From Escherichia coli (GTDB lineage: Bacteria; Pseudomonadota; Gammaproteobacteria; Enterobacterales; Enterobacteriaceae): 64,000 nt of DNA. Location: assembly GCF_009931435.1 (NCBI RefSeq), contig NZ_CP043414.1; one strand, written 5' to 3'. The notes under the pieces are model-generated. The model worked only from the letters and a program-made list of their open reading frames with translations, was not told where the DNA came from and did no database searches. Below, piece after piece: positions 3,343 through 57,583 of the stretch; position 1 is the stretch's first letter, and every line of letters starts with the position of its first letter. A program made the position numbers and the translations under genes.

Positions 3343-4975
3343 CCTACTGATAGCGATGATAATCTTTGCGCTATTCTGGCCAGCAACCGCGCTCAGAGCT
3401 GCAGTGAGCAAAACAATCTGGACGGATGCACCGGCACGCGAGTTTGTGTTTGTCGAAAACAACTCAGACGACAACTTTTTCGTCACGCCTGGCGGGGCGC
3501 TGGATCCGCGCCTGACCGGTGCCAACCGCTGGACCGGTTTAAAATACACTGGCTCAGGAACCATCTATCAACAAAGCCTCGGCTACATTGATAACGGTTA
3601 CAACACCGGCCTTTATACCAACTGGAAGTTTGATATGTGGCTGGAAAATTCGCCGGTTTCATCTCCTTTAACTGGCTTGCGCTGCATCAACTGGTACGCA
3701 GGGTGTAATATGACCACCAGTCTTATCCTGCCGCAAACCACCGACGCCAGTGGATTTTATGGCGCGACGGTGACCAGCGGCGGCTCGAAGTGGATGCACG
3801 GCATGTTGTCAGACGCGTTTTACCAGTATCTGCAACAAATGCCCGTTGGCAGCAGCTTTACGATGACCATCAATGCCTGCCAAACCTCAGTGAACTATGA
3901 CGCCAGCAGCGGCGCGCGCTGTAAGGATCAGGCCTCCGGCAACTGGTATGTTCGCAACGTCACCCATACGAAAGCAGCAAATTTGCGGTTGATAAATACC
4001 CACTCGCTGGCGGAGGTATTTATCAACAGCGACGGAGTACCGACTCTGGGCGAAGGGAACGCCGACTGCCGGACGCAAACCATCGGCAGCCGTTCAGGAT
4101 TAAGTTGTAAGATGGTTAACTATACCCTGCAAACAAACGGGCTCAGCAACACCTCAATCCATATATTCCCGGCGATCGCCAACTCGTCGTTAGCCTCGGC
4201 CGTCGGGGCGTACGATATGCAGTTCAGTCTGAATGGTAGTTCATGGAAACCGGTGAGCAATACCGCTTATTACTACACCTTCAACGAGATGAAGAGCGCA
4301 GACTCGATCTATGTTTTCTTCTCGAGCAACTTCTTTAAGCAGATGGTGAACCTGGGGATCAGCGATATCAACACCAAAGATCTATTCAACTTTCGCTTTC
4401 AGAACACCACATCACCGGAGTCTGGCTGGTATGAATTTTCTACCTCCAACACGCTGATTATCAAACCCCGTGATTTCAGCATCAGTATTATCTCCGATGA
4501 ATATACTCAGACACCGTCGCGGGAGGGATATGTTGGCAGCGGCGAGTCGGCACTCGATTTCGGCTATATCGTAACCACCAGCGGTAAAACAGCTGCCGAC
4601 GAAGTGCTGATCAAGGTGACCGGACCCGCGCAGGTGATTGGCGGACGCTCCTATTGTGTCTTCAGCTCCGATGACGGTAAGGCGAAAGTACCGTTCCCGG
4701 CGACGCTTTCCTTTATTACCCGCAACGGAGCTACAAAAACCTACGATGCCGGGTGCGATGATAGCTGGCGGGATATGACCGATGCGCTGTGGCTAACCAC
4801 ACCGTGGACTGATATCTCTGGCGAAGTGGGGCAGATGGATAAGACCACTGTCAAATTTTCGATTCCAATGGATAACGCCATTTCGCTGCGTACGATAGAT
4901 GATAACGGCTGGTTTGGCGAAGTTAGCGCTTCAGGAGAGATTCATGTTCAGGCGACATGGCGTAACATTAACTAA
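3332..4975 (+). CDS. ecpD: EcpD pilus tip adhesin
   Basis: 547-aa ORF, signal peptide [34 protein letters not shown] upstream; overlaps ecpC by 11 nt; recognised as EcpD/YagW. Confidence 0.9.
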
Positions 4976-5654
4976 GGCCCTGCTGACAGTGGTCTGTATG
5001 CTGGCGACACCTTTGACACAGGCGATTTCGGTCGGCAATCTGACTTTTTCACTGCCGTCCGAGACTGACTTTGTCAGCAAACGTGTAGTGAATAACAACA
5101 AAAGCGCGCGGATATACCGTATTGCCATCAGTGCCATCGATAGCCCAGGCAGCAGTGAATTGCGCACTCGACCGGTGGATGGTGAACTGCTTTTCGCTCC
5201 CCGCCAGCTGGCGTTGCAGGCTGGTGAGAGTGAGTATTTTAAATTTTACTATCATGGCCCCCAGGATAACCGCGAGCGCTACTACCGGGTCTCATTTCGC
5301 GAGGTCCCCACTCGCAACCAGACAAGACGCAGCCCAACCGGCGGCGAGGTCAGCACTGAGCCGGTGGTGGTGATGGATACCATTCTGGTAGTACGACCTC
5401 GTCAGGTTCAGTTTAAATGGTCCTTCGACCAGGTGACAGGAACGGTAAGTAACACCGGCAACACGTGGTTTAAGCTACTGATTAAACCAGGATGTGATTC
5501 GACCGAAGAGGAAGGCGACGCCTGGTATCTACGTCCGGGAGACGTAGTTCATCAGCCTGAGTTACGTCAGCCGGGGAATCATTATCTGGTCTATAACGAC
5601 AAATTCATTAAGATTAGCGATTCCTGTCCTGCTAAGCCCCCTTCGGCGGACTAA
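4944..5654 (+). CDS. ecpE: EcpE pilus chaperone
   Basis: Track ORF 4899-5654 (251 aa); EcpE/YagV is 236 aa beginning [14 protein letters not shown] (signal peptide), so start placed at the in-frame ATG at 4944. Confidence 0.85.
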
Positions 5655-5967
5655 GACTTATCCATCGGACGAGGGAAGAATTCCACCTCAGAGACTCAAA
5701 TAATCGTTTAAATGATGTGGAAGCGATCGTCAATGTCACCTGTAATGATGGGCTTTCTCATATGTACACCATAGTGTTCAGGAGACACGGAAAAGTGCCA
5801 GGCAGCCTGCTAACGAGTGGTTTCTTCACGAATTAGTACGTAAAATCGGTAACGGCTGGAAATCATTCAATACTCACACTATCGAAAGTTCCCCAGCCAA
5901 CCGCGGTACGTTCTTACATACGATGTACCGCTGTTCTCTTTACGATTTATAGCTGTACTGGTGAATT

Positions 5968-6297
5968 ATGAGCAATCTGAATCCATGCATGACGTGTGGT
6001 GCCTGTTGTGCATTTTTCCGCGTCTCTTTTTACTGGGCCGAAGCCGACGATGCTGGCGGTACCATTCCCGCCAGGCTCACTGAACAAATATCCCCTTTTC
6101 ACCGATGCATGAGCGGTACCAATCAGAAAAACCCCAGATGTATTGCCCTTGCAGGAACACCGGGCAAAAATGCCTGCTGCACGATATATAAAAATCGATC
6201 GTCCACGTGCAGAGAATTCGCCATGTCTGGTGAGAACGGAGAAGTCAATGAGGCTTGCAATCGTGCAAGAGCTAAATACGGGCTGACACCGTTATAA
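5968..6297 (+). CDS. ykgJ: YkgJ, small Cys-rich putative metal-binding protein
   Basis: 109-aa ORF with CxxCxxCC motif ([11 protein letters not shown]); recognised as YkgJ; conserved position between ecpE and yagU. Confidence 0.85.
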
Positions 6298-6319
6298 AGA
6301 TGCAATAATTAATTGCACT

Positions 6320-6353
6320 GCCCCGCCAGCTATAATCGCGGGGCTTCGTTTTT
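6320..6353 (+). terminator. Rho-independent terminator after ykgJ
   Basis: GC stem GCCCCGC / GCGGGGC with about 11-nt loop, followed by TTCGTTTTT, about 25 nt after the ykgJ stop. Confidence 0.5.
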
Positions 6354-6504
6354 CAGGGATAACAAAACCCGAAACTTCTTCCATCTGCCAGCAACAATGC
6401 CTCTTCCTCTATAGGGTTCTCCGGATCTACAGCATCCTGAAGTAGCGCGATGTACTCACTGGCTATCTGCATCAGAAAGTTAAAAACAATGTTTTTAACC
6501 TATA

Positions 6505-6531
6505 AAAATGGCGCTGTATTTGCGCCATTTT
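6505..6531. terminator. Bidirectional hairpin terminator between convergent ykgJ and yagU
   Basis: Perfect 10-bp inverted repeat AAAATGGCGC...GCGCCATTTT flanked by A-run and T-run; lies just downstream of the yagU stop (minus strand). Confidence 0.55.
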
Positions 6532-6545
6532 TATCATTCAATGCA

Positions 6546-7160
6546 TTATCTGTTTGAGCCTAAAGGGATCTCAGGGTCTGGCTCATGAGTAATTCTGTTT
6601 CGTAAATCTCTGCGAATAATTTCAATGGACCAGAACCAGACTAAATGTCCAAAAATTTCAGAAACATTCTCATACCACGGGAGATCAAACAGAGGTGGCG
6701 TCAGTCCCATGAGAGGGAATGAAATCATATGAACAAAAAGTTGGGCTAAAGCACCTGCCAGTAAGCCCTGCCAGAGTTTAATTTTTGGAAATACTTCAGC
6801 GACCACACAATAACCGACAGCAAACACTATCGAAAAGATAATGTGCGTAACACCAACCCAGTTAAAGACATGCCCGGCAAAGGTATAAACAGCCGAATTT
6901 GGATCTGTCAGTCCCAGCCAGTCTCGAAGAAAAATATACGGAGGATTGAGAAAATTACGGGAGCAATCAATTTGCCCAGCAGCCCTGATTAATGATTCCG
7001 GGCCACACGCTGCATTAAACATATCCACCGGGCTACGTGGCGGCAATGGAACTTCAGCCCCCCACTTCACAAATGCGGAAACAACGCCAGCAATTAGCCC
7101 AATGAATGCAGCAAGACCATAACGTCTGCGGTTCGGTGGAGTTTGTTCAAATATATTCAT
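6546..7160 (-). CDS. yagU: YagU inner membrane protein (DUF1440)
   Basis: 204-aa ORF with several hydrophobic segments; recognised as YagU ([25 protein letters not shown]...). Confidence 0.85.
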
Positions 7161-13816: not shown

Positions 13817-14965
13817 TTATTTCAGTTTGGTCTGGAAAAATTGTTCGAACTTCGCGAAAGGTATTTTTCCGGCCACGTTATCGTACAGGTCCACGTGATT
13901 TGCCCCTGGTACCACCACCAGCTCTTTGTCTTTACTGCCAACCGCCTTGTAAGCATCTTCAGCAAAATAGCGTGAATGCGCTTTCTCACCGGTCACAATC
14001 AGCGTCGGAATGGTGATTTCACTGGCGTAGCTCAACAGCGGCATATTCATAAATGACAGCGGCATCGTTGCCGTCCACGCCCCGGTAGAGTTAACGGAAC
14101 GTTCGTGGAAGCCGCGCGGCATGCGATAGTAGTCAAAGAACTCTTTCAGTACCGGATGAGGATTTGCCGGCAGCGTTTCTGGCAGAATACGCTCGCCCGC
14201 ACTGACCTTGCCGTTGCTGTCGACATTAATATCATGACCACCGTGAGCGAACGTTCCGCTCTGCGCATCCTTCCAGCGCTGTTCATTCAGATATTGCAGA
14301 ACAGCACGACGGTCGGCGGTAGAATAACGGTCTTTGCCATCCCCCACACCATGGCCCATCGCCCGGCTCATGTCATACATCACGCTGGTAGCTACCGCTT
14401 TAACGCGGGTATCCATCGCCGCGTCGTTCAGCGCCATGCCGCCCCAGCCACAAATACCGAGCAGCCCGATACGGTTGCGATCTACCTCTTTTTGCAGCCC
14501 TAAGAAATCCACCGCCGCGCTGAAATCTTCAGTGTTGATATCCGGTGAAGCGACGTTTCGCGGATAGCCGCCGCTTTCCCCGGTGTAAGAAGGATCGAAC
14601 GCCAGGGTAACAAACCCTCGTTCCGCCAGCGTCTGCGCATACAGGCCGCTGGATTGCTCTTTCACCGCGCCAAATGGCCCACTGACCGCAATCGCCGCCA
14701 GCTTGCGATCGCCACGGTCTTTAGGCAGGTAAAGATCGCCCACTAAGGTGATGCCATATCGGTTCGGGAACGAGACTTTACGGTGATCGACTTTCTGGCT
14801 CTCGGCGAACGTTTTATCCCATTTATCTGTCATGGACACAGGGGCATTAGGATTGGTTGAATCAGCATAACTCATTGTCGTGACTCCACTTAATGATGCG
14901 AAAAGCAGCATGGTCGGCATCGCGATTTTTAGCGTTCGGGTGAAGGCTTTCATAAAAATCCCCAT
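13817..14965 (-). CDS. Secreted alpha/beta-hydrolase-like protein (dienelactone-hydrolase-like, Cys in nucleophile position)
   Basis: Track ORF 13817-14974 begins with TTG; first ATG placed at 14965 (start uncertain). Signal peptide-like N-terminus; nucleophile-elbow-like GICGWGG with Cys rather than Ser. Confidence 0.65.
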   Translation of the reverse strand: MGIFMKAFTRTLKIAMPTMLLFASLSGVTTMSYADSTNPNAPVSMTDKWDKTFAESQKVDHRKVSFPNRYGITLVGDLYLPKDRGDRKLAAIAVSGPFGAVKEQSSGLYAQTLAERGFVTLAFDPSYTGESGGYPRNVASPDINTEDFSAAVDFLGLQKEVDRNRIGLLGICGWGGMALNDAAMDTRVKAVATSVMYDMSRAMGHGVGDGKDRYSTADRRAVLQYLNEQRWKDAQSGTFAHGGHDINVDSNGKVSAGERILPETLPANPHPVLKEFFDYYRMPRGFHERSVNSTGAWTATMPLSFMNMPLLSYASEITIPTLIVTGEKAHSRYFAEDAYKAVGSKDKELVVVPGANHVDLYDNVAGKIPFAKFEQFFQTKLK

Positions 14966-15139
14966 AAAAAACAACAGAGAGATACAGGTTTCCGACGGAC
15001 AACACTGCGGTGCTTTACTTTGATGGGGTCATTATAGTGAGCAGAATTAGTGCTGATTAGGGGGCGATTAATGCTAAGATTAATACCATATTGTTATAAA
15101 TTAATGCGGAGATTGCCGGCATGAAGGGGGGATGTTTCA

Positions 15140-16024
15140 ATGGCGAAAAGGGAGAACTACAACGAGCTGTACCTGTTTATGCAGGTGGTGCGGGAAGGCA
15201 GCTTTACCGCAGCGGCTCAGCGGCTGGGTCTTGCTCAGTCAGGAGTCAGCCGTTCTGTTCGCGAGCTTGAAGAAAGGCTCGGCGTCCAGCTGCTGGTGCG
15301 CACCACGCGTAAACTGTCGCTGACGCAAGCAGGCGAGCAGCTCTACCAGAAGACGGCATCTGGATTTGAAATGTTAGATCTTGGGCTTGCCACACTGGCG
15401 CACTATCGAGAGACGCCCTCCGGCACGGTGCGTATCAATGCCAGCCAGCACGCGATTGATAAATGCCTGCTGCCAAAGCTGGCGGTATTTAAACAGCGAT
15501 ATCCTGATATCCGGCTTGAACTGATAAATGAGAGCCGGTTCGTCGATATCATCGAGGAAAGATTCGATGCTGGTGTCCGCCTGGGGCCTGAAGTCGGCCA
15601 GGGTATGGTCGCGGTACGCATCACGCCCGATATGGAGATGGCAATTGTGGGGACTCCGGAACATTTTCGTCGCTATGGTTTTCCGCAAACCCCGGCGGAT
15701 TTAAAGGCGCATCCCTGTATCGCCTATCAGTTTGCCGACGGCAGCGTATACCAGTGGGAACTCAATCAGGATGATAAAAAAATCACTCATCGCCCTGAAG
15801 GGCAATGGGCCCTATCCGACAGCTATATGGAAGCAGAAGCCGCACGGCTGGGCCTCGGATTGGCCTATGTTCCTGTTGAACTGGTTGCGGATGATTTAGA
15901 ACACGGTAAGCTTATCAGAGTGTTGCAGCGTTACAGCCTGCGAATGGAGGGATTGTTTCTCTATTACCCTCATCGCAACGTCTCCCCCGCTCTGCGGATG
16001 GTCATTGATACATTGAAAATCTGA
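15140..16024 (+). CDS. LysR-family transcriptional regulator
   Basis: 294 aa; N-terminal HTH (FTAAAQRLGLAQSGVSRSVRELEERLGVQLL) and LysR substrate-binding domain; divergent from the hydrolase gene. Confidence 0.8.
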   Translation: MAKRENYNELYLFMQVVREGSFTAAAQRLGLAQSGVSRSVRELEERLGVQLLVRTTRKLSLTQAGEQLYQKTASGFEMLDLGLATLAHYRETPSGTVRINASQHAIDKCLLPKLAVFKQRYPDIRLELINESRFVDIIEERFDAGVRLGPEVGQGMVAVRITPDMEMAIVGTPEHFRRYGFPQTPADLKAHPCIAYQFADGSVYQWELNQDDKKITHRPEGQWALSDSYMEAEAARLGLGLAYVPVELVADDLEHGKLIRVLQRYSLRMEGLFLYYPHRNVSPALRMVIDTLKI

Positions 16025-16734
16025 ACGTTAACAACGACCGACTCTTCACTGTGCAATATTGTGTCAGGTAGTCACTCTGCGTTCAATTCCAGGGGCCGCT
16101 TTGAGCGAGAAAGAGCGGACTTATCTGTACAAGGGGACTATCCAGCAATGGAGATCACCCATAAGAAAAAAGTACCTGGCTCCCTCGACAACCTTCATCC
16201 GGGAATTTAGCCTCAATCAACATTTTTATATCTGTCAGGTTACTTCATTATGAAAACCGATCAATATCGTTGTTTTTGTTGCAATAGTAGAATACGCCTA
16301 TTTATTCCTCCATTTCTATTAATAACGGCCATAAACCGTTCACTTCACTGATATTTAAAATATGCATCCTTTTCCTGCTTTTCAAGTTGTTCAGCGGCGT
16401 AAGAAAACGTATTAAATATGAATTCGACGATTTAACCATTTCTGTCTGATTGGTAATCATCTGTGATTAATGCTGGTCTATTGATTACGCCAGCATTAAC
16501 CGCTTAGGGATGTATTCTTCCTGATCATATACATCCCTCGAAAAAGAGAGAAAATAAAACTGTGTCCAATATTACTCTACCACTCCAGACCGAAGTATCG
16601 GTAGAATTAGCAGAACGACTGGTACAATAGATTGGGATAGCGTCATTTGTCAGGTATTCCATTGCCTGACAAATGACAATTTTGAGTCAATAGACGTGCT
16701 TCTTGATCATGTCTTACAAATTATACCATGAACC

Positions 16735-17007
16735 TTATGAAGCATCATTTTTACTGACTGGTGTTAACTTTGCTATCATATAAACTCTGTTCTTAAAAAA
16801 CGCGCCCAGAATTTTATATGATTTCCCTTGTTTTTCTGCCTGTAAAGAAATTTCTTTTTCAGTGCTGTTAATGGTTGAACCGACGGCAGTAATCTTTTTG
16901 GCGACGCTACTGAATGATAATAAAGACAGTGTAACCACAACAATTAAAGAACAGATAGTATTCACGTTAATTCTCCTGACAATTGAGAGGGTGAGTTTTA
17001 TATACAT
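16735..17007 (-). CDS. Small secreted DUF1471-like (YdgH/BhsA/McbA-family) protein
   Basis: 90-aa ORF in an AT-rich stretch; signal-peptide-like N-terminus; mature part (KITAVGSTINSTEKEISLQAEKQGKSYKIL...YMIAKL) fits the DUF1471 pattern of small stress/biofilm proteins. No convincing SD. Confidence 0.4.
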   Translation of the reverse strand: MYIKLTLSIVRRINVNTICSLIVVVTLSLLSFSSVAKKITAVGSTINSTEKEISLQAEKQGKSYKILGAFFKNRVYMIAKLTPVSKNDAS

Positions 17008-17176
17008 AGGTATTAAACATGAGTCATATTTACTCCAAGAGAAAACACTCCTTCTGTAATTAAACCTTCATCTCCTTCGGGGTGAGCAATACATAATGCA
17101 TCTTGCTATGCAAAACAGGTGGATATCAATTTTCCTCCCGACCTATTTAATAAAACGTGAATATAAAAGTTATTCT

Positions 17177-17899
17177 TCAGTTTGCAGATGCAGTAGGTCT
17201 GATGGTAATTTCGGTTGTATCAACGCTTTCGGGAGATTCAATAATATGCCTTACAGCACGGGCAATATCCGCGGGTTGAAGTGCAACAGAACGGTAGGCG
17301 TTCATTGACTTCATGGTTTCCACATGGGTAATGGTTGAAGCCAGTTCACTTTCTACAACCCCAGGATTTACGCAGGTCACACGGATTTTCGAGCTTTCCT
17401 GCCGTAAGCCATCAGAAATAGCCCGTACTGCAAATTTTGATGCGCAATAGACTGCGCCTGTGGGCACAACAGAAAGGGCACCAATAGAACCAAGATTGAT
17501 TATCTGACCGGAACCCTGTGCTTCCATCACCGGAAGTACAGCGCCAATTCCCCAAAGTACGCCTTTGATATTCACGTCAATAGTGAGCTCCCATTCATTT
17601 TGTTTTCCTGCTGCAAGCGGTGAAAGCGGCATAACGCCCGCATTATTGATAAGAACATCAACTCGCCCCCAGCTATCCAGCGCTGCTTGCACGAAATCTG
17701 CCATGGACTGTCGGTCTGTGACATCCAACTCCCGCGCTTTAGCAATTCCTCCTGCGCGGCAGATTTCTTTTGCAATGGCTTCGATACGCTCAAGTCTGCG
17801 TGCTCCCAGTAAAACCTTTGCACCTGCCGTTCCCAGCTCTCTGGCAATACCTTCCCCAATACCACTTGATGCGCCGGTGATTAATATGACCTTATCCAT
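17177..17899 (-). CDS. Short-chain dehydrogenase/reductase (SDR)
   Basis: Track ORF starts at a TTG (17914); start placed at ATG 17899 (MDKVILITGASSGIGEG, classic TGxxxGxG NAD(P)-binding motif) with AAGGAG SD 7 nt upstream. Confidence 0.8.
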   Translation of the reverse strand: MDKVILITGASSGIGEGIARELGTAGAKVLLGARRLERIEAIAKEICRAGGIAKARELDVTDRQSMADFVQAALDSWGRVDVLINNAGVMPLSPLAAGKQNEWELTIDVNIKGVLWGIGAVLPVMEAQGSGQIINLGSIGALSVVPTGAVYCASKFAVRAISDGLRQESSKIRVTCVNPGVVESELASTITHVETMKSMNAYRSVALQPADIARAVRHIIESPESVDTTEITIRPTASAN

Positions 17900-17997
17900 T
17901 ACGTTCTCCTTCAAATGTGTTCGGAGAGAGAATAGAACTTTATGATTGGTTCCAGTATCCTGCTTTCAATGTACTCAATGGTTAGCGGCATTAAACA

Positions 17998-18897
17998 ATG
18001 AAAATCGATCTTAATCTTTTACCCATTTTTATCGCGGTAGCAGAAGAGAGTAATTTCAGTAAAGCCGCCGCACGACTGGGCGTTACCCGTTCAGCGGTCA
18101 GTCAGGGAATAAGACGTCTTGAAGATGCATTCGGGACAATGCTTGTAATGCGGACCACGCGCTCAGTTAATTTGACGGAAGCGGGAGAACGGCTGCATAA
18201 ATCGTTGTCATTACCTTTATCCGGTATTGAGGCAGCGTTCGAAGAGATGGTCTCTGACCATGTACCACGTGGACATCTCAGAATCGCGGTGACGTCGATA
18301 GCAGAAGAATTTCTTTCAGGTCCGCTAATCGCTTCGTTTGCAGCTGCCAATCCAGCCGTTACGCTTGATATTGTTGTCACGGATGAGGAATTCGATATCG
18401 TTGCCGCAGGTTACGATGCTGGCGTAAGGCTCGGAGAGGTCATTGAAAAAGACATGATTGCTGTTCCCCTTACCGGTAAGCAGCGTGAGATGGTCGTTGC
18501 CTCTCCCTCCTATCTCGCAGCCAACAGCACACCTGTTCATCCGCGCGAACTTGTGAATCATAAGTGTATCGGCTGGCGTCAGTCCCCGGAGGTTGCGCCT
18601 TATCGCTGGCCATTTGAAGAAAACGGTAGAGCTTTCGACCTTGCGATTGAACCGCAGATTACGACGAATGATCTGCGTCTGATGTTGAGGCTGGCTCTTG
18701 CCGGCGGAGGAATAACAATTGCCACTCAGGAAACGTTCAGGCCATATATTGAAAGCGGTAAGCTTGTATCGCTGCTTGATGACTTTCTTCCACAATTTCC
18801 GGGCTTCTATCTGTATTTCCCACAGCGTCGCAATATTGCACCAAAGCTCCGCGCCCTGATTGACCACGTCAAGGAATGGCGGCAGCAATTGGCTTAA
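17998..18897 (+). CDS. LysR-family transcriptional regulator
   Basis: 299 aa, HTH near N-terminus (FSKAAARLGVTRSAVSQGIRRLE); divergently transcribed from the SDR gene. Confidence 0.8.
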   Translation: MKIDLNLLPIFIAVAEESNFSKAAARLGVTRSAVSQGIRRLEDAFGTMLVMRTTRSVNLTEAGERLHKSLSLPLSGIEAAFEEMVSDHVPRGHLRIAVTSIAEEFLSGPLIASFAAANPAVTLDIVVTDEEFDIVAAGYDAGVRLGEVIEKDMIAVPLTGKQREMVVASPSYLAANSTPVHPRELVNHKCIGWRQSPEVAPYRWPFEENGRAFDLAIEPQITTNDLRLMLRLALAGGGITIATQETFRPYIESGKLVSLLDDFLPQFPGFYLYFPQRRNIAPKLRALIDHVKEWRQQLA

Positions 18898-19024
18898 ATG
18901 TCTGCACCTGCACTGCCTGATGTCAGAACAGTATTTTGAGAAATTGCCAGGGTTACAATGGCACAAATACGGCACAGGAGGAAAACGTGGTGTAATTGAA
19001 TGTGAGGTAACTTATTGATTTAAA

Positions 19025-19100
19025 TGGTGCCGATAATAGGAGTCGAACCTACGACCTTCGCATTACGAATGCGCTGCTCTACCAACTGAGCTATATCGGC
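19025..19100 (-). tRNA. thrW: tRNA-Thr (anticodon CGU)
   Basis: Reverse complement reads GCCGATATAGCTCAGTTGGTAGAGCAGCGCATTCGTAATGCGAAGGTCGTAGGTTCGACTCCTATTATCGGCACCA: 76 nt, cloverleaf arms, anticodon loop TTCGTAA, 3' CCA; downstream of proA as thrW is in E. coli. Confidence 0.9.
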
Positions 19101-19214
19101 CCTGAAAGGACATGTTCACGAGCGTGAATCACGGTGGACAAGGTTAAAACTAACCGGGCGATGCGTCAATGGCCTTGTGAATCAAATGGCTACTTTTGCA
19201 TCACCCGGTTTTAT

Positions 19215-20468
19215 TTATGCACGAATGGTGTAATCACCAATGCCGATCCACTTGTAGGTGGTCAGAGCTTCCAGCCCCATTGGGCCGCGCGCGTGGAGTT
19301 TTTGTGTGCTTACCGCAACTTCCGCACCCAGACCAAACTGGCCGCCGTCGGTAAACCGCGTAGAGGCGTTAACGTAAACAGCGGAGGAATCCACTTCGTT
19401 GACAAAACGCTGGGCATTACGCATATCGCGGGTCAGGATCGCATCGGAGTGTTGCGTACCGTGTTCACGAATATGGGCGATGGCATCGTCAAGATCGCTG
19501 ACGATTTTGACGTTCAAGTCTAATGACAGGAACTCATCGTCATACTCTTCGGCTTTAACAGCCACCACCTTCGCGGGGCCTGCCTGCAACTGCGCCAGCG
19601 CAGTTGCGTCAGCGTGTAATGTCACGCCGCTTTCCGCCATTTGCTTGCTTAATGCGGGCAGGAAGCTATCTGCGATGTTTTTATTTACCAGCAACGTTTC
19701 TACCGTATTACACGTGCTCGGGCGCTGAGTTTTCGCGTTGACAATCACTTTCAATGCTTCAGCGATCTCTGCACTTTCATCAACGTAAATATGGCATACG
19801 CCTATACCACCTGTGATTACCGGAATCGTCGACTGCTCGCGGCACAGTTTATGCAACCCAGCCCCGCCGCGTGGGATCAGCATGTCGATGTATTTATCCA
19901 TACGCAGCAGTTCACTGACCAGCGCACGGTCAGGATTATCAATCGCCTGCACGGCACCCGCCGGTAAACCGCAGGATTTCAGGGCGTCCTGAATCACCGC
20001 CACCGTTGCAGCGTTAGTGCGACAGGTTTCTTTGCCGCCACGCAGAATCACTGCATTACCGGTTTTCAGGCACAGCGAAGCGACATCAACCGTCACGTTC
20101 GGGCGCGCTTCATAAATCACGCCAATCACCCCCAGCGGCACGCGACGGCGTTCCAGGCGCAGGCCACTGTCCAGCACGCCACCATCAATCACCTGCCCCA
20201 CCGGATCGGCGAGGTTACACACCTGGCGCACATCATCGGCAATGCTTTTCAGCCGTGCGGGCGTCAGTGCCAGGCGGTCAAGCATCGCTTCGCTAAGGCC
20301 ATTGGCACGCGCGTCAGCAACATCCTGGGCGTTAGCATTGAGGATGCTTTCGCTTTGTGCTTCCAGTTCATCGGCGATTTTTTCCAGCACGCGATTTTTT
20401 TCGCGACTGGAGAGTTGCGCTAAATTATACGAGGCTTGCTTCGCGGCAATGCCCATTTGTTCCAGCAT
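19215..20468 (-). CDS. proA: ProA, gamma-glutamyl phosphate reductase
   Basis: 417 aa, recognised as E. coli ProA ([36 protein letters not shown]...). Confidence 0.95.
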
Positions 20469-20478
20469 CGGCTGCTCC

Positions 20479-21582
20479 TTAACGGGTAATCATATCATCA
20501 CGGTGAACGGCAACCGGGCCGTATTCATATCCCAGTATTGCATCAATTTCTTGCGAGTGGTGTCCGGCAATACGGCGTAATGCATCGCTGTTGTAACGAC
20601 TGACGCCGTGGGCGATATCGCGACCTTCGAGGTTGCAAATGCGAATGACTTCACCACGCGAGAAGTTGCCGGTTACGCTTTTAATGCCTTTCGGCAACAG
20701 GGAGCTGCCGCGTTCAAGAATGGCGGCGGTTGCCCCTTCATCTACCGTGATTTCACCCGCAGGTGGCGCACCGAAAATCCAACGTTTGCGGTTTTCAAGC
20801 GGAGTCGCCTGGGCATGGAACAGCGTACCGACGGAAATACCTTCCATCACATCACCAATGACACCCGGCTTACTGCCCGCGGCAATAATGGTGTCGATAC
20901 CCGCACGGCAAGCCACGTCAGCGGCCTGCAATTTAGTGCTCATGCCGCCGGTTCCAAGACCTGAAACGCTGTCACCGGCAATCGCGCGCAGTGCGTCATC
21001 AATGCCGTACACATCTTTAATCAGTTCTGCCTGCGGATTGCTACGCGGGTCAGCGGTATACAAACCTTTTTGATCGGTCAGCAACAACAGTTTATCGGCA
21101 CCTGCCAGAATCGCCGCCAGCGCCGAAAGGTTATCGTTATCGCCGACTTTAATCTCTGCAGTAGCGACAGCATCGTTCTCATTAATTACCGGGACAATGT
21201 TGTTATCGAGCAGCGCACGAAGGGTATCCCGCGCGTTAAGGAAGCGTTCACGGTCTTCCATATCAGCACGAGTTAGCAGCATCTGCCCGACGTGAATGCC
21301 ATAAATCGAAAACAGCTGTTCCCACAGTTGAATCAGTCGACTCTGCCCTACCGCCGCCAGAAGTTGTTTCGAGGCGATAGTCGCTGGCAGTTCCGGGTAA
21401 CCCAGGTGCTCACGTCCGGCGGCAATCGCCCCCGACGTCACAATTACAATCCGATGCCCGGCGGCATGTAGCTGCGCGCACTGGCGAACAAGTTCAACGA
21501 TATGGGCACGGTTCAGGCGGCGCGATCCGCCTGTTAGCACACTGGTGCCGAGTTTTACCACCAGCGTCTGGCTGTCACTCAT
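20479..21582 (-). CDS. proB: ProB, glutamate 5-kinase
   Basis: Track ORF 20479-21669; ProB is 367 aa starting [19 protein letters not shown], so start placed at in-frame ATG 21582. Confidence 0.95.
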
Positions 21583-21770
21583 GATTCTCTGCCATTCAAT
21601 TTTAGGGAAAATGATATCAAACGAACGTTTTAGCAGGACTGTCGCCGGTTGCCAACCATCTGCAAGCAAAGCATGGCGTTTTGTTGCGCGGGATCAGCAA
21701 GCGTAGCGGCAGTTGTTTACGCTTTTATTACAGATTTAATAAATTACCACATTTTAAGAATATCATTAAT

Positions 21771-37049: not shown

Positions 37050-37195
37050 TTTTCAGGTCGGATGCGGCGTGAATGCATTATTCGGCCTACGGTTCGGGTA
37101 CAGATTTGTAGGCATGATAAGACGCGTCAGCGTCGCATCAGGCATCAGCGCACAAGTGCCGGATGCGGCGTAAACGCCTTATCCAGCCTACGCCA
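37050..37195. repeat. REP/BIME cluster (three REP palindromes)
   Basis: Three copies of the REP motif (GTCGGATGCGGCGTGAATGCATTATTCGGCCTAC; GTAGGCATGATAAGACGCGTCAGCGTCGCATCAGGC; GCCGGATGCGGCGTAAACGCCTTATCCAGCCTAC) in alternating orientation between yafJ and gmhA. Confidence 0.65.
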
Positions 37196-41901: not shown

Positions 41902-42029
41902 GTGGGGGTTGTGTTTAGGGCCGGGGAGAGTTGGGGTATGACTACGAAAGCCCGCTCTCCTGCGACCACTTTTATCATAGGAGTGTGGAAGTGCTTTTCC
42001 ATCAATCGCGATGACGTCTCAGGGAAAGA

Positions 42030-43103
42030 TTACGAAAGCCCGCTCCCCGCAAGGACTGACGCCAGATACTTTCTGTCCATGGCTGCTTTTCGCATCTTAC
42101 GTCTTAACCCTGCCTTGAATACCTTATCATTCGTCAAAATATTAATTGCGATGTGCCGTATCCCTGAAAATAATTCTGCTGCATTTCCTCTTCTTATTTT
42201 GCAGTCGTCTTCATTCATTACCACGTCCAGACGCCAGTGCAGCTTATTCTCCACGTGCCAGTGGTTTCGGATTGCTGTGGCGAACTTCTCTGCGGTTAAA
42301 TCAGCAGAACTGATATAATATCTGACCGTCATTTCTGGCTCTTTCTTTTGTTCTGCTATTATTGACCGAAAGGAGACTGCCACGCATAATTTCTTCAGAC
42401 CTTTCCATTCAAACGTGAAATCAATAAGTTCATCAGGGACATCGCAAACAATGTGAAGACGGATTTCTTCTCTGCCGTGACTCTTTTCACTAATTGCGTA
42501 ACTGTCATGCTCTGGATTATTTAATTCTTTCAGCGGAAATTTTTCCTCGAAGCCTTTATTTAGCCGCCCCTGGTTTCCTTTTACAGCGAATAAATAATCA
42601 CCTCCCTGTTTTTGTATCTTCTCTGCAATATCTTTCTGGCAACCCATCGCATCAGTTGTGATGATTTTTCCTTTAATATCCAGCATGTTAAGAAGTTCTG
42701 GGATAGCTGTAATCTCATTGGATTTCTCATCCGTCTTGATCTGTCCGATGACCAGACTGTGCATTGTTGAGAACGCACTAATGACATGAATCGCTCCCCT
42801 GCGGCGACTCTTGTCATAAGAGTGCCGGAGCGTTTTTCCATCAATTGCAATGACGCCTTTATCATCTGAAGAATGGCAGTCACGCATCCAGTTAATAAAG
42901 CACTCGTGAAATTTTGCAGGACTGATACAGGATACAACTCTGGCAATGGTATCGTGAACAGGAATACCATTTTCAAAATCACCATATTGCTTCAAAAAAT
43001 CGAGATGTGTTTCCCCAAAATCCTCTATATCTTCCCAACCTTCTGCACCCGAAATAACGGCGCAAATAGTCAACAGTAGAATATCCGATAATTTATGTTC
43101 CAC
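42030..43103 (-). mobile_element. ISAs1-family (H-repeat-associated) transposase, intact ORF
   Basis: 357-aa ORF recognised as H-repeat/ISAs1 transposase ([39 protein letters not shown]...); lies next to the Rhs genes. Element ends (inverted repeats) not determined. Confidence 0.8.
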
Positions 43104-43310
43104 TTTCTAGGCTTGTCTGTAATCGGGGATAATAGAAATATGTTCCATCAATTTTTTAAGTTCCATTTTGTTCTCCTTAATTATGTAAGGAGTATTTGAT
43201 CATGTATAAGCAATAAAAAACAGCTTCAGGTAATGAGGAATATCTCAATTTTTAAACATAAAATGCGAATTGTTTAGTACAAAAAAGCAGCGTTACGTGA
43301 TCTTTCCCTG

Positions 43311-43414
43311 CCAGCCCCTCCGGGTTGACCTGCTCCGTCACCCGCAGAACCCTGCACAATATCCAGTCCCTTGCAGGTCATGTCACCCTGCCGCGCCGCC
43401 GGTTTTCCGCTCAT
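43311..43414 (-). pseudogene. Orphan Rhs 5' fragment (Rhs upstream region + first 22 codons fused to a short internal Rhs piece)
   Basis: Minus strand 43414 down to 43345 near-identical to the Rhs2 start ([13 protein letters not shown][C][11 protein letters not shown]) and preceded by the same upstream sequence (CATGGTTTATTCCT); 43344-43311 matches an internal Rhs segment (…[11 protein letters not shown]…) read out of frame; stop soon after. Confidence 0.55.
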
Positions 43415-43546
43415 GGTTTATTCCTTTTCTTTTACCTTACATGGCCATACAAATAGTTACCTATACTGTCTTTGAATATTGCCCTATCATTTAAAGCCCA
43501 CCTAATTTTTGCGACAGCAAAGGGATTTCTTTTTTAATCCAATCTA

Positions 43547-43939
43547 TCATTTCATTTTTTTAAAACATACGTTAATGCCATTCACACTTCCACATTCACC
43601 AAAAGCATCAAAATAAATTTCACATTTATTGTTGCCTTTCGAAATGATGCTAACCCCCCATCTTATATTGTTATATTTTTCTTTTCTGAAATACTTCATT
43701 TGCAATAAATCAATTATCTTACCCGCATAGAGATCGCTAAGTTCATTCACCACCACTTTATATCTGTATATTTCATTAAGACCTTCCTTGCTAAGCGGAA
43801 CTAACGTGGTAACATACGATGGAAGATTAACTACCTCTATCGTTTTCACGCTATCTATTCCACACAATTCATTCACTCGCCCCATCCCCAATACCGAACC
43901 AGAAAATAGAGACAATAAAACCATCAAATATTTCATCAT
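43547..43939 (-). CDS. Putative secreted immunity protein for the Rhs2 C-terminal toxin
   Basis: Track ORF starts at GTG 43951, overlapping the Rhs2 stop; ATG at 43939 has a GAGG SD. Sec signal peptide (MMKYLMVLLSLFSGSVLG), about 130 aa, AT-rich, immediately 3' of the Rhs2 toxin domain. No recognised family. Confidence 0.55.
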   Translation of the reverse strand: MMKYLMVLLSLFSGSVLGMGRVNELCGIDSVKTIEVVNLPSYVTTLVPLSKEGLNEIYRYKVVVNELSDLYAGKIIDLLQMKYFRKEKYNNIRWGVSIISKGNNKCEIYFDAFGECGSVNGINVCFKKMK

Positions 43940-43950
43940 AAAAAACCTCA

Positions 43951-46900
43951 CTATTCTGGCGTACCCGTTATTGTCATCGTCTGCAACGGTCCATCCACCC
44001 GATAAAAAGGCAGTCCACTATGAGCTCCTCTGACACACTCATCTAAAGTTTTCGCCGCACGCGATTCAATTATTGTAATAACCCTTGCCTCTTCTTTATT
44101 ATCATATTTCTTATCCGTCCGACTTAAAAGAGCCATGAAATTTTCTTTATCAAGAAGGTAATACTGTGCATGTGCAAACTCATGCCCCAAACCTAATGCA
44201 GGCGATTGTGATTTCGAGTTTAATTCAGTTGAACAAAATAAAGACGCTCTACTATTCCAATATATCGTCATATTATTCGAATTAAATCTACCATTGGTTC
44301 CTTCAATATACTCTATATTTATAGTTTCTTCAGAGCTTGATAAAAAATCTATAGCATCTTTCATTCGTGAATCTTTTTCTAAATACTTAACAGCCTGATT
44401 AAAATCACTTGGATCACCATTAACCTCGAATTTTAAACCCAAAGAATCTATAAACCGAACAGGGTTTAATGGATATTTATACAGATTCCATTCACCTCTT
44501 AGCCCGATTGGATCCTGCGTGATATACCTCCCCTGCAACGGGTCATAGTACCGGTGACGGTTGTAGTACAGCCCCGACTCCTCATCATACTGCTGCCCTG
44601 GCAGACGGTACGGCTGTTGCAGGTGCTCCGGGTTTTCCTCTCCCAGCAGGTTTCCCCACTCGTCATACTCCCCGCGCCACGCCGTTTCCCCTTCCGGGCT
44701 GATAAGCGCCTGCGGCAGCCCACGGTGGTCACAGTGGTAAAGATGAAGTTTCCTCTCCGGGATGTATTCTTCCTCCATCTGGTTGTTCATCTGTTCCGCC
44801 GTCAGCCCGCACTGCGCAAGCCATGCTTCACTCTCCGCACTCACCGCACCCGCGCGCAGTTCCCGCTCCAGCCTCCCCAGCATCACCGACAGCTCCGCCG
44901 GGAGCGTCACACCCGTGTCCTCCTGCAACACCTCCGCCAGGCTACGGTGCCGCGCCTTCGCCTGTTCGCCATTCTCTGTTTCGATTCTCAGGAGCGGCGT
45001 GAAGCTTCCCGGCTGATAAATCGTCTGGATACGTGTGGTGCCGGTCTGTACCGTCGTCAGCCTGTCACCGTCCCACCCGTACCATGTCTCCTCCGGTTTA
45101 CGCGACAGCGACATCCATCCCGTCAGGTCACGCTCCCGCCGCCACACCCGTTTTCCCGTCCTGCGGCCCAGCGGGTCGTAAAGGTAGCGGCTCTCCACCT
45201 GCGGCTCGCCGTGCTGTATCCGCGTGTAGAACACCAGACGGTGCTGGCTGTCGTAATGGTAGTGGTGGGTGCGCTCGTCGTGCATCCGTATCACCCCTTC
45301 CGGGATACGGTCCGTCTTCTCCGCCAGCCTGCCGTATTCATCGTGGCGGTAGACATAGTGCGCATCTTCCGCGATGCGGTTATCCGGCCACGCCGTGAAG
45401 GTGCTGTCCGGGTGCAGTTCCGGGTCCGGCAGCCGGTTTCCTGCCGGGTCCGTCGCATACGGGATATCAATGTCCAGGTTCGCTGCCGTGGTGTGGACGC
45501 CCGTCAGCCTTCCCGTGTCGCTGTAACGGTACTCCCGGCTCTCCTGCGGGCCGCTGATACGCACCAGTTGCCCGTTATCATTCCACGTATACTCACGGTC
45601 AAGCTGCGGAAGGTTCAGGTGCCTGCTCCGGAGCTGGCCTGTGAGGGTGTATGTGCTGGTCAGTTCATATGCGGCATTACTGCCTGCCATGCTGCCGAAG
45701 CTGCGCACCGTCTCACGGTGCAGCCTGTCCCGCGTGTACTCGACCAGCGGCGTTCCGCCCAGCTTCATCCCCGCAAGATAACCGCTGCCATACGTCAGCC
45801 ACTCCACCGGCGGCAGACCGTCCGGCTCCTGACGGGTCGCCAGCCCCTGTTCGCTGTACGCGTGCCCCGTCTCATGCTCCCACAGCATCTCCCCCGTCTC
45901 CGGGTTCTCCACCGTCTGCCGTTCGCCCGTCAGGCGGCCCTTATCGTCATAGCCGTAGTGGACCGCCACACGGTGGCCTTCACTGGTATGGCTGAGGGTG
46001 GTTAACCACCCGTGCTCATCATACTGCCACTGCTCTGCCGCTTCGCCGTTCACCGTCCGGTGCGTGATGCGGTCCGACGCATCGTAGTGCCAGAGGGTGA
46101 TAAGTCCCTCGTCTTCACTGCGGACAAGCTGCCCTGTGGCGCTGTACCGGTAACGCTGTGTCCGTCCGTCAAAGCCGCGCTGCTCCGTCAGGCGGTCCAC
46201 CGGGTCATACAGGAACGTGGACTGGCTGCCGTTCTCATTAGTCAGCGTGGTGATGCGCCCGGCGGCGTCATACCCCATGCTGCGCGTCAGACCGCCCTGC
46301 GTGGTGCTGATAGCTTTACCCCACGCATCATACTGTGTCTCACTGCGGCTGCCGTTCGGGGCAATGATAGCGGTGAGGTCGCCTGCGGCGCTGTACTCAT
46401 AACGGGTTTCACGCCCCTGCACATCCTTCTGACTGACCAGTTGACCACGCGGGTTATAACTGCTGTAAGTGCTGATGCCTTCTTCCCGGTGAACCGCCGT
46501 CCTCTGCCCGTACCGGTCGTACTCATACCGTGTCGTGTACCCCGAGCAGTCCGTGAAGGCCAGCAGTTGACCGTAGCGGCTCCATGCCATCTGTTTTGTA
46601 CTGCCCGTCGCATCCTGTATCCCTGTCGGCAGCTCACTCGCCGGGTCATCATAGCTGTACCGCGTCGTCTCACCGCTGCGCGAGGTCTCCGCCGCCAGCC
46701 TTCCCTTCTCATCATACTCCCGGCTGCTGCGAAGCCCGTCCGGGTACGTCACTGACGTCACCTGCCGCTGGCTGTTGTAGCCATACCGCACCGTCCTGCC
46801 GTCCGGCCCCGTCACCGCCGTCACCGCGCCCGACGCCATATGCAGGCTGTACTCCGTCCGCCGCCCCGCCGCATCCGTCTGCGCCTTCAGCCTCCCCGCC

Positions 46901-48330: not shown

Positions 48331-49323
48331 TCATTGTTTGTTATCAGAAAGTGTTTTATACAGCGGCACATATCCCACGTCTTCCACAAGACTTTGCCCC
48401 TGAGGGCTTAAAAACCAGTCCACTAGTTTTTGTGTTTCCGGTGTCGGCTTTTCGCGGGTGACCATGTAGGCATCCACCACATACGGATAAGTACCGTTGC
48501 GGATATTCTCCACCGTTGGTGCAATACCATTTATTGCCAGCAGCTTAAGATTTGGGCTTATATCCTTATTCATCTGTGTGACATAATAGCGGAAGGTGTA
48601 ACCAATTGAAGGCTGCGTATTCCGGTAGGCAATTACTTTGGTTAACACTCCATTCATAAGGCTTACTTCTGTAGATGTTCTGGCGGGTAGCATCGGTGTC
48701 TCTTTCATCACCTTTGCCAGCATCACCGTCTGGCTACCGGAATCTTCCGGACGCTGCCAGACCTGAATGCGCTCATCACTGCCACCAACCTGACTCCAGC
48801 GGGTGATTTTACCGCTGAAGATATCCCGAACCTGCTGTTCAGTAAAAGAACTGACCGGATTACTGGCGTTAACGATAAAAACAAAGGCTTCGTGGGCGAA
48901 GGGGGTATAAACCAGTTTCACCCCGGCATCGGCAGCCCGTTGTTTTTGTCCTGCGGAAGGCTGGGCAACAAAAATAACATCGGCCTGGCGCTTTATGAGA
49001 TCATTATAGGCTTCTGGTGTACGAGTCGGATACATATAATTCAAACCCGGATCTTGATGGTTATCCCCGGGGATCAAATATCGGTAAGCTGAAGCATACA
49101 GTGGATATAACGCGGTTGCACCACATACCCGGGGCCATTTATTCGAGTTATCAGTGTAGCGTAAAGTGGGTTCTCCTCGTATATTGGTTTTCTCCCAACT
49201 CACTGTTTCTTTTACGCTGTTATCGCCCCCGCCGTCTACACATCCTGACATTAATACCGTCATATAAAATAATACTGGTAACAGGCCCACCCTACGCATA
49301 CAATGATTTAATAAATACGCCAT
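48331..49323 (-). CDS. PstS-like (phosphate-binding-protein fold) putative lipoprotein, orphan
   Basis: Track ORF 48331-49365; start placed at ATG 49323 (GAGG SD 5-6 nt upstream) giving MAYLLNHCMRRVGLLPVLFYMTVLMSGC with lipobox-like LMSGC; PstS-like motifs (VIFVAQPSAGQ..., FTEQQVRDIFSGKITRWSQVGGSDERIQVW); no ABC transporter genes nearby. Confidence 0.55.
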   Translation of the reverse strand: MAYLLNHCMRRVGLLPVLFYMTVLMSGCVDGGGDNSVKETVSWEKTNIRGEPTLRYTDNSNKWPRVCGATALYPLYASAYRYLIPGDNHQDPGLNYMYPTRTPEAYNDLIKRQADVIFVAQPSAGQKQRAADAGVKLVYTPFAHEAFVFIVNASNPVSSFTEQQVRDIFSGKITRWSQVGGSDERIQVWQRPEDSGSQTVMLAKVMKETPMLPARTSTEVSLMNGVLTKVIAYRNTQPSIGYTFRYYVTQMNKDISPNLKLLAINGIAPTVENIRNGTYPYVVDAYMVTREKPTPETQKLVDWFLSPQGQSLVEDVGYVPLYKTLSDNKQ

Positions 49324-49627
49324 ATACCTCACTCTAAAATATTGATTATATAAATACATATGCATAATTATATTTACATCAAATTCTGAATGAACAATTT
49401 AAATTTAGAGAAAGTGAAATTTAATTTTTCGATACTTCCGCATACATATTCCCCTCGCTAAAAAATCATCATTCCACAATCAATCATTAATTACAACTCA
49501 ATATACATCATTTAACTTTCATTAAACTCGCAATTTATTATTACATTGTAGCCATTATGAACTGTCATCACGCACACACTCTACATACACATTAGAAACA
49601 ATATAACCCCATGAGCCATCCTCCGTT

Positions 49628-50074
49628 TCAATACTTAGTGCAGCGTGTCTTAAGGAAATTAGAAGCCACAACATCAATCTTTTCTTTTAAGACTAAATCA
49701 TCCACATAATCACAAGACAAATAGAAGTCATTACCATCGGCCATTATAAATATCCTCATAGGTAAAGATTTATCATTATCAACATGAGCATTCGTAATAA
49801 TCCAATAATAAGGAAATCTAACATTTTTTGTAGGAATACCCAATAAATCATAAGCTTTATTATTATATTCTATCGCTCCCTTAACAAACGTTGGTTTGAC
49901 CTCCTTACCAATAATGCGATGCGACGTATATTCTTCCTTCTCAGCAAACGATTGCATTAATGCCCATATAGGTTTATTTGCCAGCTCACCGTGATGAAAA
50001 ATCCGATAAAAATACACTCCTAAAAAAAATATTAAGCCTAAGCAAACCAATACCATGAGGCAGTTCTTACTCAT
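49628..50074 (-). CDS. Putative membrane-anchored immunity protein for the Rhs1 C-terminal toxin
   Basis: 148 aa; ATGA start/stop overlap with Rhs1; single N-terminal TM helix ([19 protein letters not shown]); AT-rich. No recognised family. Confidence 0.55.
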
Positions 50075-57287: not shown

Positions 57288-57583
57288 TTGTAAACTCCTT
57301 GTTAACGTGGTTAATTACTACTTACAATGACCTGCCGTTAATCCCAGACAGGCAGATGCAGCTCACTTCACGGAACCGCATCATTTTTCAGTATTTTTTA
57401 CATACAAACCGAGCTAGAATTTACGGTTGTCGTAAAAACTATTTTTAAAATCATTAAATCTCTTATTCAGCAATAACTTAATAATATATATCTGGATAAC
57501 TATACCCAACTGTTCAAAGTCCGTATTGCCTCCATAAAATGGCCAAAGCTGAATCATGAATAAATATTGTATTTATCCTTTCT

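Follow-up and report, generated by a model that had tools for sequence, protein, structure and literature searches.

What does the long AT-rich gap between a LysR gene and an SDR gene near thrW of Escherichia coli contain, and is any of it a working gene? The window (the whole stretch of DNA analysed, 64,000 nucleotides) is E. coli DNA around proB-proA-thrW, and the gap, referred to below as the interval, extends exactly from the stop codon of one LysR gene to the stop codon of an SDR oxidoreductase gene (Table 1). A sequence-only reading had described it as markedly AT-rich and as lying between two LysR/enzyme pairs, and both descriptions are borne out. Its GC content is 37.3%, compared with 52.5% for the whole window, which ranks it among the lowest 1.7% of windows of its length (1152 nt), and 300-nt windows within it range from 0.34 to 0.38; one flanking pair consists of the hydrolase and second LysR genes, the other of the SDR gene and its divergent LysR gene. 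The order downstream of thrW is LysR (17998-18897), SDR, interval, LysR (15140-16024), hydrolase and an MFS transporter gene. The best public match, E. coli 2020CK-00188 (locus L001), is 99.5% identical over 15900-17300, and the equivalents in O157:H7 Sakai are ECs_0305 (LysR, called yagP in that strain), ECs_0306 (oxidoreductase) and ECs_0307 (hypothetical, 92 aa).

Table 1. Features of the interval and its surroundings (positions in the window)
Feature	Position	Strand	Remark
alpha/beta hydrolase gene	13817-14974	-	beyond LysR 15140-16024
second LysR gene	15140-16024	+	identity confirmed by Pfam
AT-rich intergenic stretch	16025-17176		37.3% GC against 52.5% for the window
junction DNA of the LysR (15140-16024) side	16025-16253	+	unrelated to the ykgR 5' region
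ykgR relic: last 22 codons and stop (16254-16322) plus 65 nt downstream	16254-16387	+	without start codon
relic of ykgO 3' end, ykgMO terminator hairpin and ykgL 3' end	16389-16531	+	
perfect 15-bp inverted repeat, 6-nt loop	16642-16677		between two convergent small genes
small CDS, 76 aa, GTG start, orthologue of ECs_0307 (O157:H7 Sakai)	16735-16965	-	putative short divergent DUF1471-family secreted protein
predicted Sec signal peptide, residues 1-22 (MNTICSLIVVVTLSLLSFSSVA, cut before KK)	16900-16965	-	hydrophobic core, S-V-A before the cleavage point
spacer from SDR stop to small gene, 211 nt	16966-17176	-	possible read-through or weak promoter region
Shine-Dalgarno AGGAGA	16972-16977	-	6 nt before GTG 16965; read directly from the sequence
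SDR oxidoreductase gene, ECs_0306	17177-17914	-	PF00106, E=6.7e-55; upstream partner of the small gene
LysR-type regulator YagP, ECs_0305	17998-18897	+	PF03466 and PF00126; divergent from the SDR gene
tRNA-Thr(CGT), thrW	19025-19100	-	
proA	19215-20468	-	
proB	20479-21669	-	

A truncated ykgR copy in the interval

Between its two ends the interval holds a small gene, a relic of the ykgR/ykgO region and, between the two, a 15-bp hairpin. The view that it carries only one plausible gene has thus to be given up: a ykgR pseudogene (16254-16322) and a relic of the ykgO/terminator/ykgL region (16389-16531) had been missed. Segment 16254-16387 shares 89% identity with K-12 ykgR, of which it covers the 3' two-thirds, and with the sequence downstream of that gene; its ykgR part is labelled by PGAP, in the genome of 99.5% identity, a pseudogene with a ‘missing N-terminus’. 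It reads KPINIVVFVAIVEYAYLFLHFY followed by a stop, where YkgR (PF28062) of K-12 reads LINIVVFVAIVEYAYLFLHFY and a stop. An in-frame TGA precedes the 22 remaining codons and the DNA upstream is unrelated, so that no intact 33-codon ORF is left. Relative to the ykgR-ykgM-ykgO region of K-12, unrelated DNA has taken the place of the promoter, the start and the first ∼11 codons, and the ykgM-ykgO body (∼675 bp) is missing between the two relic segments. The second segment is 74.5% identical to positions 4261-4401 of the K-12 locus (L002) and conserved at 87-94% among Escherichia lineages; 16389-16415 are the last eight codons of ykgO and 16467-16499 the ykgMO terminator hairpin, which, compared with K-12, has a compensatory T-A to C-G change in its arm and has lost its T-run.

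An intact 33-aa YkgR (PF28062) is encoded at the same locus in E. fergusonii and in two other Escherichia lineages, the three proteins sharing 31, 32 and 33 of 33 residues with K-12 YkgR. In these loci ykgR is convergent with the small gene and the same ykgMO deletion is present. Homology to them ends inside ykgR, at ∼16254, in the window, in the aligned locus H1 and in Sakai, with unrelated DNA beyond that point. Judging from these alignments, a rearrangement truncated ykgR in the lineage of the window, removing its 5' end and leaving a pseudogene. The nearest genome (99.5% identical) keeps an intact ykgL-ykgO-ykgM-ykgR locus ∼20 kb away. Paralogy of the LysR/hydrolase pair with the pair that stands beside the canonical ykgR was considered and rejected, because the identity, 29-34%, is merely at the family level.

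Three other ORFs of the interval (16059-16253, 16250-16351 and 16302-16460) gave no family match in a Pfam scan. A 45-codon ORF on the minus strand (16525-16662) keeps its length in four of the five other aligned loci, its stop being missing in Sakai; it was rejected as a gene because of its dN/dS of 0.83-0.99.

A short and divergent DUF1471 protein

The product of the small gene had been described as a DUF1471/BhsA-like secreted protein. The assignment to the family stands when sensitive methods (profile search, hhalign) are used but not by plain HMM search: the search for DUF1471 that had been proposed as a check, once run, gave E=0.14 for PF07338 with the 76-aa protein, i.e. 12.7 bits for a gathering cut-off of 27, and the first Pfam scan showed no DUF1471 match at E≤0.1. 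Other Escherichia alleles score 14.4-17.4 bits on PF07338. The best curated-family match is to the NCBIfam BhsA model (NF047859), with E=1.3e-4, and since its 22.5 bits compare with an equivalog cut-off of 90, the protein is not a BhsA orthologue. BhsA (YcfR), the multiple stress resistance protein, is likewise a small DUF1471 protein, periplasmic or outer-membrane-associated, but it has 85 aa, a longer N-terminal segment and a different locus.

Word-indexed homologues (n=87) all belong to Escherichia or Shigella. When the profile of the Escherichia group was run exhaustively with HMMER, 59 proteins came up at E≤1e-3, 17 of them at E≤1e-10, with values down to 4e-21; these relatives are mostly 68-73 aa long, come from genera that include Enterobacter, Pantoea and Atlantibacter, and are in many cases named DUF1471 or YdgH/BhsA/McbA-like by NCBI. 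The named relatives are confined to Escherichia, Shigella, Enterobacter, Pantoea, Atlantibacter and Klebsiella, that is to Enterobacterales. PF07338 is matched at E≤1e-4 by 19 of 20 tested non-Escherichia members, and in an alignment of 40 sequences (A3; four from the Escherichia group and 36 outside relatives) by 39 (E≤1), of which 21 reach E≤1e-5. Aligned by hhalign with the profile of 20 non-Escherichia members, the Escherichia-only profile reached 99.6% probability (E=6.9e-25, 69 columns). A sequence search of the PDB with the Escherichia-only profile found no DUF1471 structure, and with the 40-sequence profile the DUF1471 matches were weak (E 0.3-1.8). The direct scores are low, but homology to relatives that match PF07338, the hhalign result and the predicted fold described below together place the protein, as a divergent member, in a subfamily of short DUF1471 proteins, visible by sensitive methods alone; the Pfam threshold misses this subfamily. 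DUF1471 proteins are typically of ∼90 aa, and ∼12 subfamilies have been described (PMC4092069); the 76-aa precursor is shorter than that, and its subfamily is absent from those named there. K-12 has ten DUF1471 paralogues (PMC4092069; PMC12096828), and the small gene is a strain-variable paralogue beyond these ten.

AlphaFold (AF2) run with the 40-sequence alignment gave a model of mean pLDDT 83.5, with 90-97 across residues 21-70, and predicted a strand (24-29), a helix (32-45) and two further strands (49-57 and 61-68). The mature domain is accordingly modelled with the beta-alpha-beta-beta fold of DUF1471 (YdgH/BhsA/McbA), a compact mixed alpha+beta arrangement like that of the solved DUF1471 domains and RcsF; RcsF is the closest likeness of the DUF1471 fold (PMC4092069; PMC12096828). 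A Foldseek comparison of the model with the PDB returned nothing at E≤0.001, 4evu being ninth with E=0.29. An earlier model from a shallow alignment of 11 sequences, a single helix with pLDDT 62.7, was discarded in favour of the 40-sequence run.

The N-terminus resembles a Sec signal peptide, with a core hydrophobicity of 2.7 on the Kyte-Doolittle scale, and in the alignment the signal peptides of 39 relatives fall in register with it. Cleavage would fall after A22 and leave a mature part of 54 aa (5.9 kDa, pI 9.9, no cysteine). No K or R occurs in the first eight residues, a trait found in four of the 40 aligned members, all from the Escherichia group. Enterobacter and Pantoea encode short single-domain DUF1471 proteins (e.g. 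WP_248243945.1; 69-71 aa; PF07338) of the same architecture, a signal peptide of ∼22 aa and a domain of ∼47 aa, with 41-46% identity and the profile-profile probability of 99.6% already given. Common to both in A3 are the motifs S/T-I/V-S/T-A, T-L/I-D-x-A-E-x-x-I, Y-K-I and V-Y/H-M-T/I-A-x-L. However, the Enterobacter and Pantoea proteins score above the Pfam threshold, their n-regions are basic, their chains stop directly behind the last strand and their genes stand alone, whereas the protein of the window has a 9-residue C-terminal tail, its n-region carries no charge and its gene is linked to an SDR/LysR pair.

Live gene, dead remnant or RNA

The reading that we prefer, with a probability of about 0.78, is that the interval is a decaying, strain-variable junction which carries one functional accessory gene of the DUF1471 family and the wreck of another gene, ykgR. 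The live gene would give a 76-aa precursor, of which 22 residues form a Sec signal peptide and the other 54 a basic mature domain. By analogy with characterised DUF1471 members, the protein would be exported to the periplasm and may act on the envelope under stress, where it would modulate either the permeability of the outer membrane or the proteins in it. Precedents in the family are BhsA, by which permeability to copper is lowered, YjfN, which guides DegP to OmpA, RclB, for which an action on OMPs has been proposed, and YdgH, which affects susceptibility to beta-lactams and detergents (PMC12096828, PMC11705850, PMC4092069). The gene would be the third of a unit in which LysR and SDR genes diverge and the small gene follows the SDR gene, its expression being tied to that of the LysR-controlled SDR. 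A second copy of ykgR, with the remnant of the ykgO tail and terminator, would once have stood convergent to it, until the rearrangement in this lineage removed the 5' end of ykgR and made it a pseudogene. We counted against this reading the 12.7 bits for a cut-off of 27 and the lack of a PDB sequence match to DUF1471 with the Escherichia-only profile, the uncharged n-region, unlike that of 36 of the 40 aligned members, the want of a recognisable promoter in the spacer, and, as detailed below, ∼4% of frameshifted alleles and a dN/dS of 0.67 with E. fergusonii. There is no sign of anything categorically new: the stretch is ordinary variable E. coli DNA, now better annotated, and nothing in it should surprise a specialist. 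The gain in annotation is that a protein which E. coli genomes by the hundred list as ‘hypothetical’, ECs_0307 of O157:H7 among them, becomes assignable to DUF1471, as a strain-variable paralogue with a corrected 76-aa start.

It could be argued that the small ORF is itself a dying or dead remnant in AT-rich junk, like the ykgR relic, and that its likeness to DUF1471 is historical. Several E. coli clusters do carry frameshifts in A/T homopolymer runs, with products of 61-62 aa, ∼92% of complete genomes lack the locus, several deletion or replacement variants end in the stretch, the signal peptide lacks a basic n-region, and the start is GTG in the window and in Sakai, while most alleles have ATG; a literature search on ECs0306/ECs0307 gave no data on transcription, translation or localisation, its sole item being an in-silico drug-target list. 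We nevertheless consider this explanation unlikely. Computed by the Nei-Gojobori method, the dN/dS of the small gene is 0.22-0.39, over dS up to 0.9, with 0.27 (dS 0.33-0.45) for the comparison with two cryptic-lineage (clade) alleles and 0.34 (dS 0.89) for that with the cassette paralogue described in the next section, whereas the neighbouring 45-codon ORF, which serves as an internal control for selection, gives the values of 0.83-0.99 for which it was rejected. The CDS is also better conserved than its flanks (87% identity to the L010 lineage, without indels, compared with 74-80% for the non-relic flanks), the Shine-Dalgarno sequence and start are kept, and intact alleles dominate, the frameshifted ones amounting to ∼4% by contig count. 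This indicates that purifying selection is detectable and that the gene is real, if weakly constrained; the ∼4% of frameshifted alleles and the dN/dS of 0.67 with E. fergusonii, a value based on 10 substitutions only, point to a relaxed constraint.

A further question is where the gene starts. It had been described as encoding 90 aa without a convincing Shine-Dalgarno sequence, and the 90-aa ORF (16735-17007, minus strand, ATG at 17007) does exist; yet the conserved start is the GTG at 16965, for a protein of 76 aa, and the remark on the Shine-Dalgarno sequence holds for ATG 17007 only, since the minus strand reads AGGAGA (16977-16972), attaac, GTG (16965). Homologues are annotated either with 76 aa, from the position of 16965, or with 89-92 aa. 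That the 90-92-aa form is the true product may seem attractive because PGAP and the Sakai annotation use it, because the upstream frame is open, with K/RR, in E. coli and E. fergusonii, and because the extension (MYIKLTLSIVRRIN...) would supply the positive charges missing from the signal peptide. We hold it to be improbable. The RR of the extension are the codons of the AGGAGA Shine-Dalgarno sequence itself, at the position of which four of the five other aligned loci (H1, Sakai, L010 and L015) have AGGAGA, AGGGAA or AGGATA, and L012 has ATGATA. The ∼16 codons upstream of GTG 16965 are not frame-conserved: in lineages L010 and L012 the ATG has lost its frame through a 1-nt indel, there are other upstream ATGs or none, and the gene calls begin 9 or 4 codons upstream. 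Finally, each of the 36 relatives in A3 that do not belong to the Escherichia group starts at the aligned Met. The frame-shifted upstream codons, the RR encoded by the Shine-Dalgarno sequence and the aligned Met of the relatives lead us to choose the 76-aa gene, 16965-16735, as the most likely form over the 90-aa ATG form. The suggestion that the long intergenic space could hold an sRNA, extended here to other structured regulatory RNAs such as a 3'UTR-derived RNA ending at hairpin 16642-16677, had some appeal in view of the perfect 15-bp stem, which is followed by a T-run on the plus strand only and has a folding z of -2.08, and of segment 16388-16530, conserved as much as the CDS. We found no evidence for such an RNA in the interval, and we regard it as very improbable: in lineages L010 and L012 four central pairs of the hairpin, the sole strong one, are broken and no compensatory change restores them, the conserved block is accounted for by the ykgR copy, intact in these two lineages, whose 3' region and terminator it represents, and the spacer upstream of the small gene has no excess structure. 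A search of 15000-19500 with Rfam 15 at E≤1 gave just the tRNA-Thr and two chance matches outside the interval, and a scan of the whole window at the gathering threshold gave no match in the interval.

The LysR-SDR unit, its mobile relative and its distribution

In the loci examined the small gene always follows the same LysR/SDR pair, and the LysR-SDR-small order is found in Sakai, in E. fergusonii, in other Escherichia (clade) lineages and in a cassette of 2.9 kb. The latter encodes the nearest outgroup and paralogue of the small protein (P0145), a 73-aa ‘hypothetical protein [Enterobacterales]’ with 58% aa identity, and is ∼97% identical across hosts, in surroundings of prophage, island or plasmid-like type. 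Behind the homologous SDR (89% aa identity) and LysR (86%) genes, the order and spacing of the genes are like those of the window; at the DNA level the LysR-SDR pair is 82.6% identical to that of the cassette and the small gene 69.9%. The order around P0145 is always LysR(-), SDR(+), small(+), Atu4866-like(+), and the cassette thus adds a fourth gene, of the Atu4866 family (PF11512), to the unit. The copy of the window differs in being chromosomal near thrW, in facing the ykgR relic and in having no relic of the Atu4866 gene, none being found by tblastn downstream of the small gene. A linkage to SDR that would be general to the short DUF1471 subfamily was looked for in Enterobacter and Pantoea and not found: the genes there stand alone in unrelated contexts, which makes the SDR/LysR linkage specific to the clade of the window gene.

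The 211-nt spacer contains neither a terminator-like site nor excess structure (folding z=+0.2), and its single consensus sigma-70 site overlaps the start codon. It is 74-91% identical between the window and Sakai, L010, L012 and L015, with TGTTTAAT and TTAATT as invariant blocks among Escherichia lineages. Transcripts of the small gene would arise either at the SDR gene, by read-through, or at a promoter in the spacer that is weak or needs an activator, and for co-transcription with the SDR gene we see about even chances.

A functional parallel may be drawn with the rclABC operon, where RclB (YkgI), a periplasmic DUF1471 protein, is encoded downstream of an oxidoreductase gene and beside a divergent regulator, so that a precedent exists for a stress unit combining an oxidoreductase with a DUF1471 protein. 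The differences are that RclA is a flavoprotein and not an SDR, that RclR is of the AraC type and not a LysR, and that the unit of the window has no RclC-like membrane protein. It is tempting to speculate that the LysR-SDR-short-DUF1471 unit is a self-contained mobile stress cassette, in which a periplasmic DUF1471 protein and a cytoplasmic SDR answer to one LysR sensor, but we think this rather doubtful. Were it true, the unit might combine control of envelope permeability with detoxification of electrophiles or oxidants, as proposed for RclA and RclB, and it would give the first defined pathway partner for a DUF1471 protein. The conserved LysR-SDR-DUF1471 linkage is in any case a handle (inducer, phenotype) on the mechanism of the family.

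Horizontal acquisition, which had been suggested from composition, receives circumstantial support from GC3, from the sparse presence of the locus and from the prophage and island contexts of the 2.9-kb cassette. The small gene has a GC3 of 0.31 and the LysR and SDR genes that accompany it have 0.41-0.46, compared with 0.55-0.66 for proA, proB and other neighbours, which is consistent with a foreign origin of the whole LysR-SDR-small block. Silencing by H-NS had also been evoked; the interval is AT-rich and variably present, and no site with two or fewer mismatches to the high-affinity H-NS motif (Lang), TCGATAAATT, occurs in it. A phage collection gave no match, and a plasmid location was set aside for E. 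coli, where the plasmid matches listed were mainly mislabelled chromosomes or F-primes; weaker plasmid matches occurred in other genera. The small-gene region is present in 436 of 5426 complete E. coli genomes (∼8%), and at least part of 16025-16640 is matched in 921 of the 5426, in many with only 80-90% identity or partially. In some variants the match stops near 16495, beside an AbiEii toxin gene, and in others near 16621-16626, beside a truncated LysR gene. The stretch thus emerges as a junction that occurs in several forms, the result of deletion or replacement.

Breakpoints and a second ykgR copy in the AT-rich gap

About 490 E. coli genomes retain the left part of the AT-rich stretch (16025-16640) and lack the small DUF1471-family gene (16735-16965). 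The point at which the match is lost varies: some of these genomes lose it near 16495, where an AbiEii/AbiGii toxin gene adjoins, and others near 16621-16626, where the neighbour is a truncated LysR gene. Judged by where these matches end, the AT-rich stretch is a recurrent breakpoint.

The same part of the gap holds a second ykgR copy, at a locus from which ykgM-ykgO is absent and in which the ykgO tail and terminator are retained. E. fergusonii and other Escherichia lineages have an intact form of this copy; in the E. coli lineage of the window it is truncated. In the nearest genome (E. coli 2020CK-00188, 99.5% identical) the canonical ykgL-ykgO-ykgM-ykgR locus is present as well, at a distance of about 20 kb. 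The second copy may have arisen by an old segmental duplication, or it may derive from a rearranged single locus. The 45-codon ORF by the hairpin is of constant length and free of indels in all but one of the five other aligned loci, the exception being Sakai (O157:H7), where its stop is missing. It nevertheless evolves neutrally, with a dN/dS of 0.83-0.99.

Coordinates of features in the window and in aligned loci
Feature	Location	Strand	Remarks
ykgR copy + ykgO tail + terminator	window 16254-16531		convergent to small gene 16735-16965
ykgR copy, same locus, other Escherichia	L010 4649-4750; L012 4656-4757; L015 4684-4785
45-codon ORF	window 16525-16662	-	start inside loop of 15-bp hairpin
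LysR + SDR + 73-aa DUF1471-like gene + Atu4866-like (PF11512) gene	L004-L008, about 3956-6851		2.9-kb block
tRNA-Thr(CGT) thrW	window 19025-19100
IS009 RNA	window 6340-6540	-	Rfam, gathering score, 196 bits
naRNA4/CssrE	window 37111-37188	-	Rfam, gathering score, 76 bits
Low-GC trough	window about 42011-44800		minimum 0.36 (1152-nt windows)
Low-GC trough	window about 48461-50870		minimum 0.33 (1152-nt windows)
Low-GC trough	window about 56791-58620		minimum 0.39 (1152-nt windows)

Relatives of the small gene and their settings

The 2.9-kb block recurs in different hosts at about 97% identity, with tail-fibre, UmuDC, CbtA/CbeA, antirestriction and AbiH genes as neighbours, and has the look of a cassette of mobile cargo. 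Within the family alignment, the n-region of the predicted signal peptide (16900-16965) is devoid of Lys/Arg in 4 of the 40 members, all of the Escherichia group, where such an uncharged n-region might lower the efficiency of export. Separately, the Enterobacter asburiae short relative P0094 adjoins a chaperone-usher fimbrial cluster (L020 741-3716), a setting that recalls Klebsiella KP1_4563, a published DUF1471 gene placed between fimbrial clusters (PMC5521740).

thrW and base composition

No integrase or prophage lies next to thrW within the window; an integrase or phage gene is found at thrW in the 99.5%-identical genome, in Sakai (prophage Sp2) and in several Escherichia lineages. The GC low point of the entire window is the trough near 49251 (1152-nt windows).
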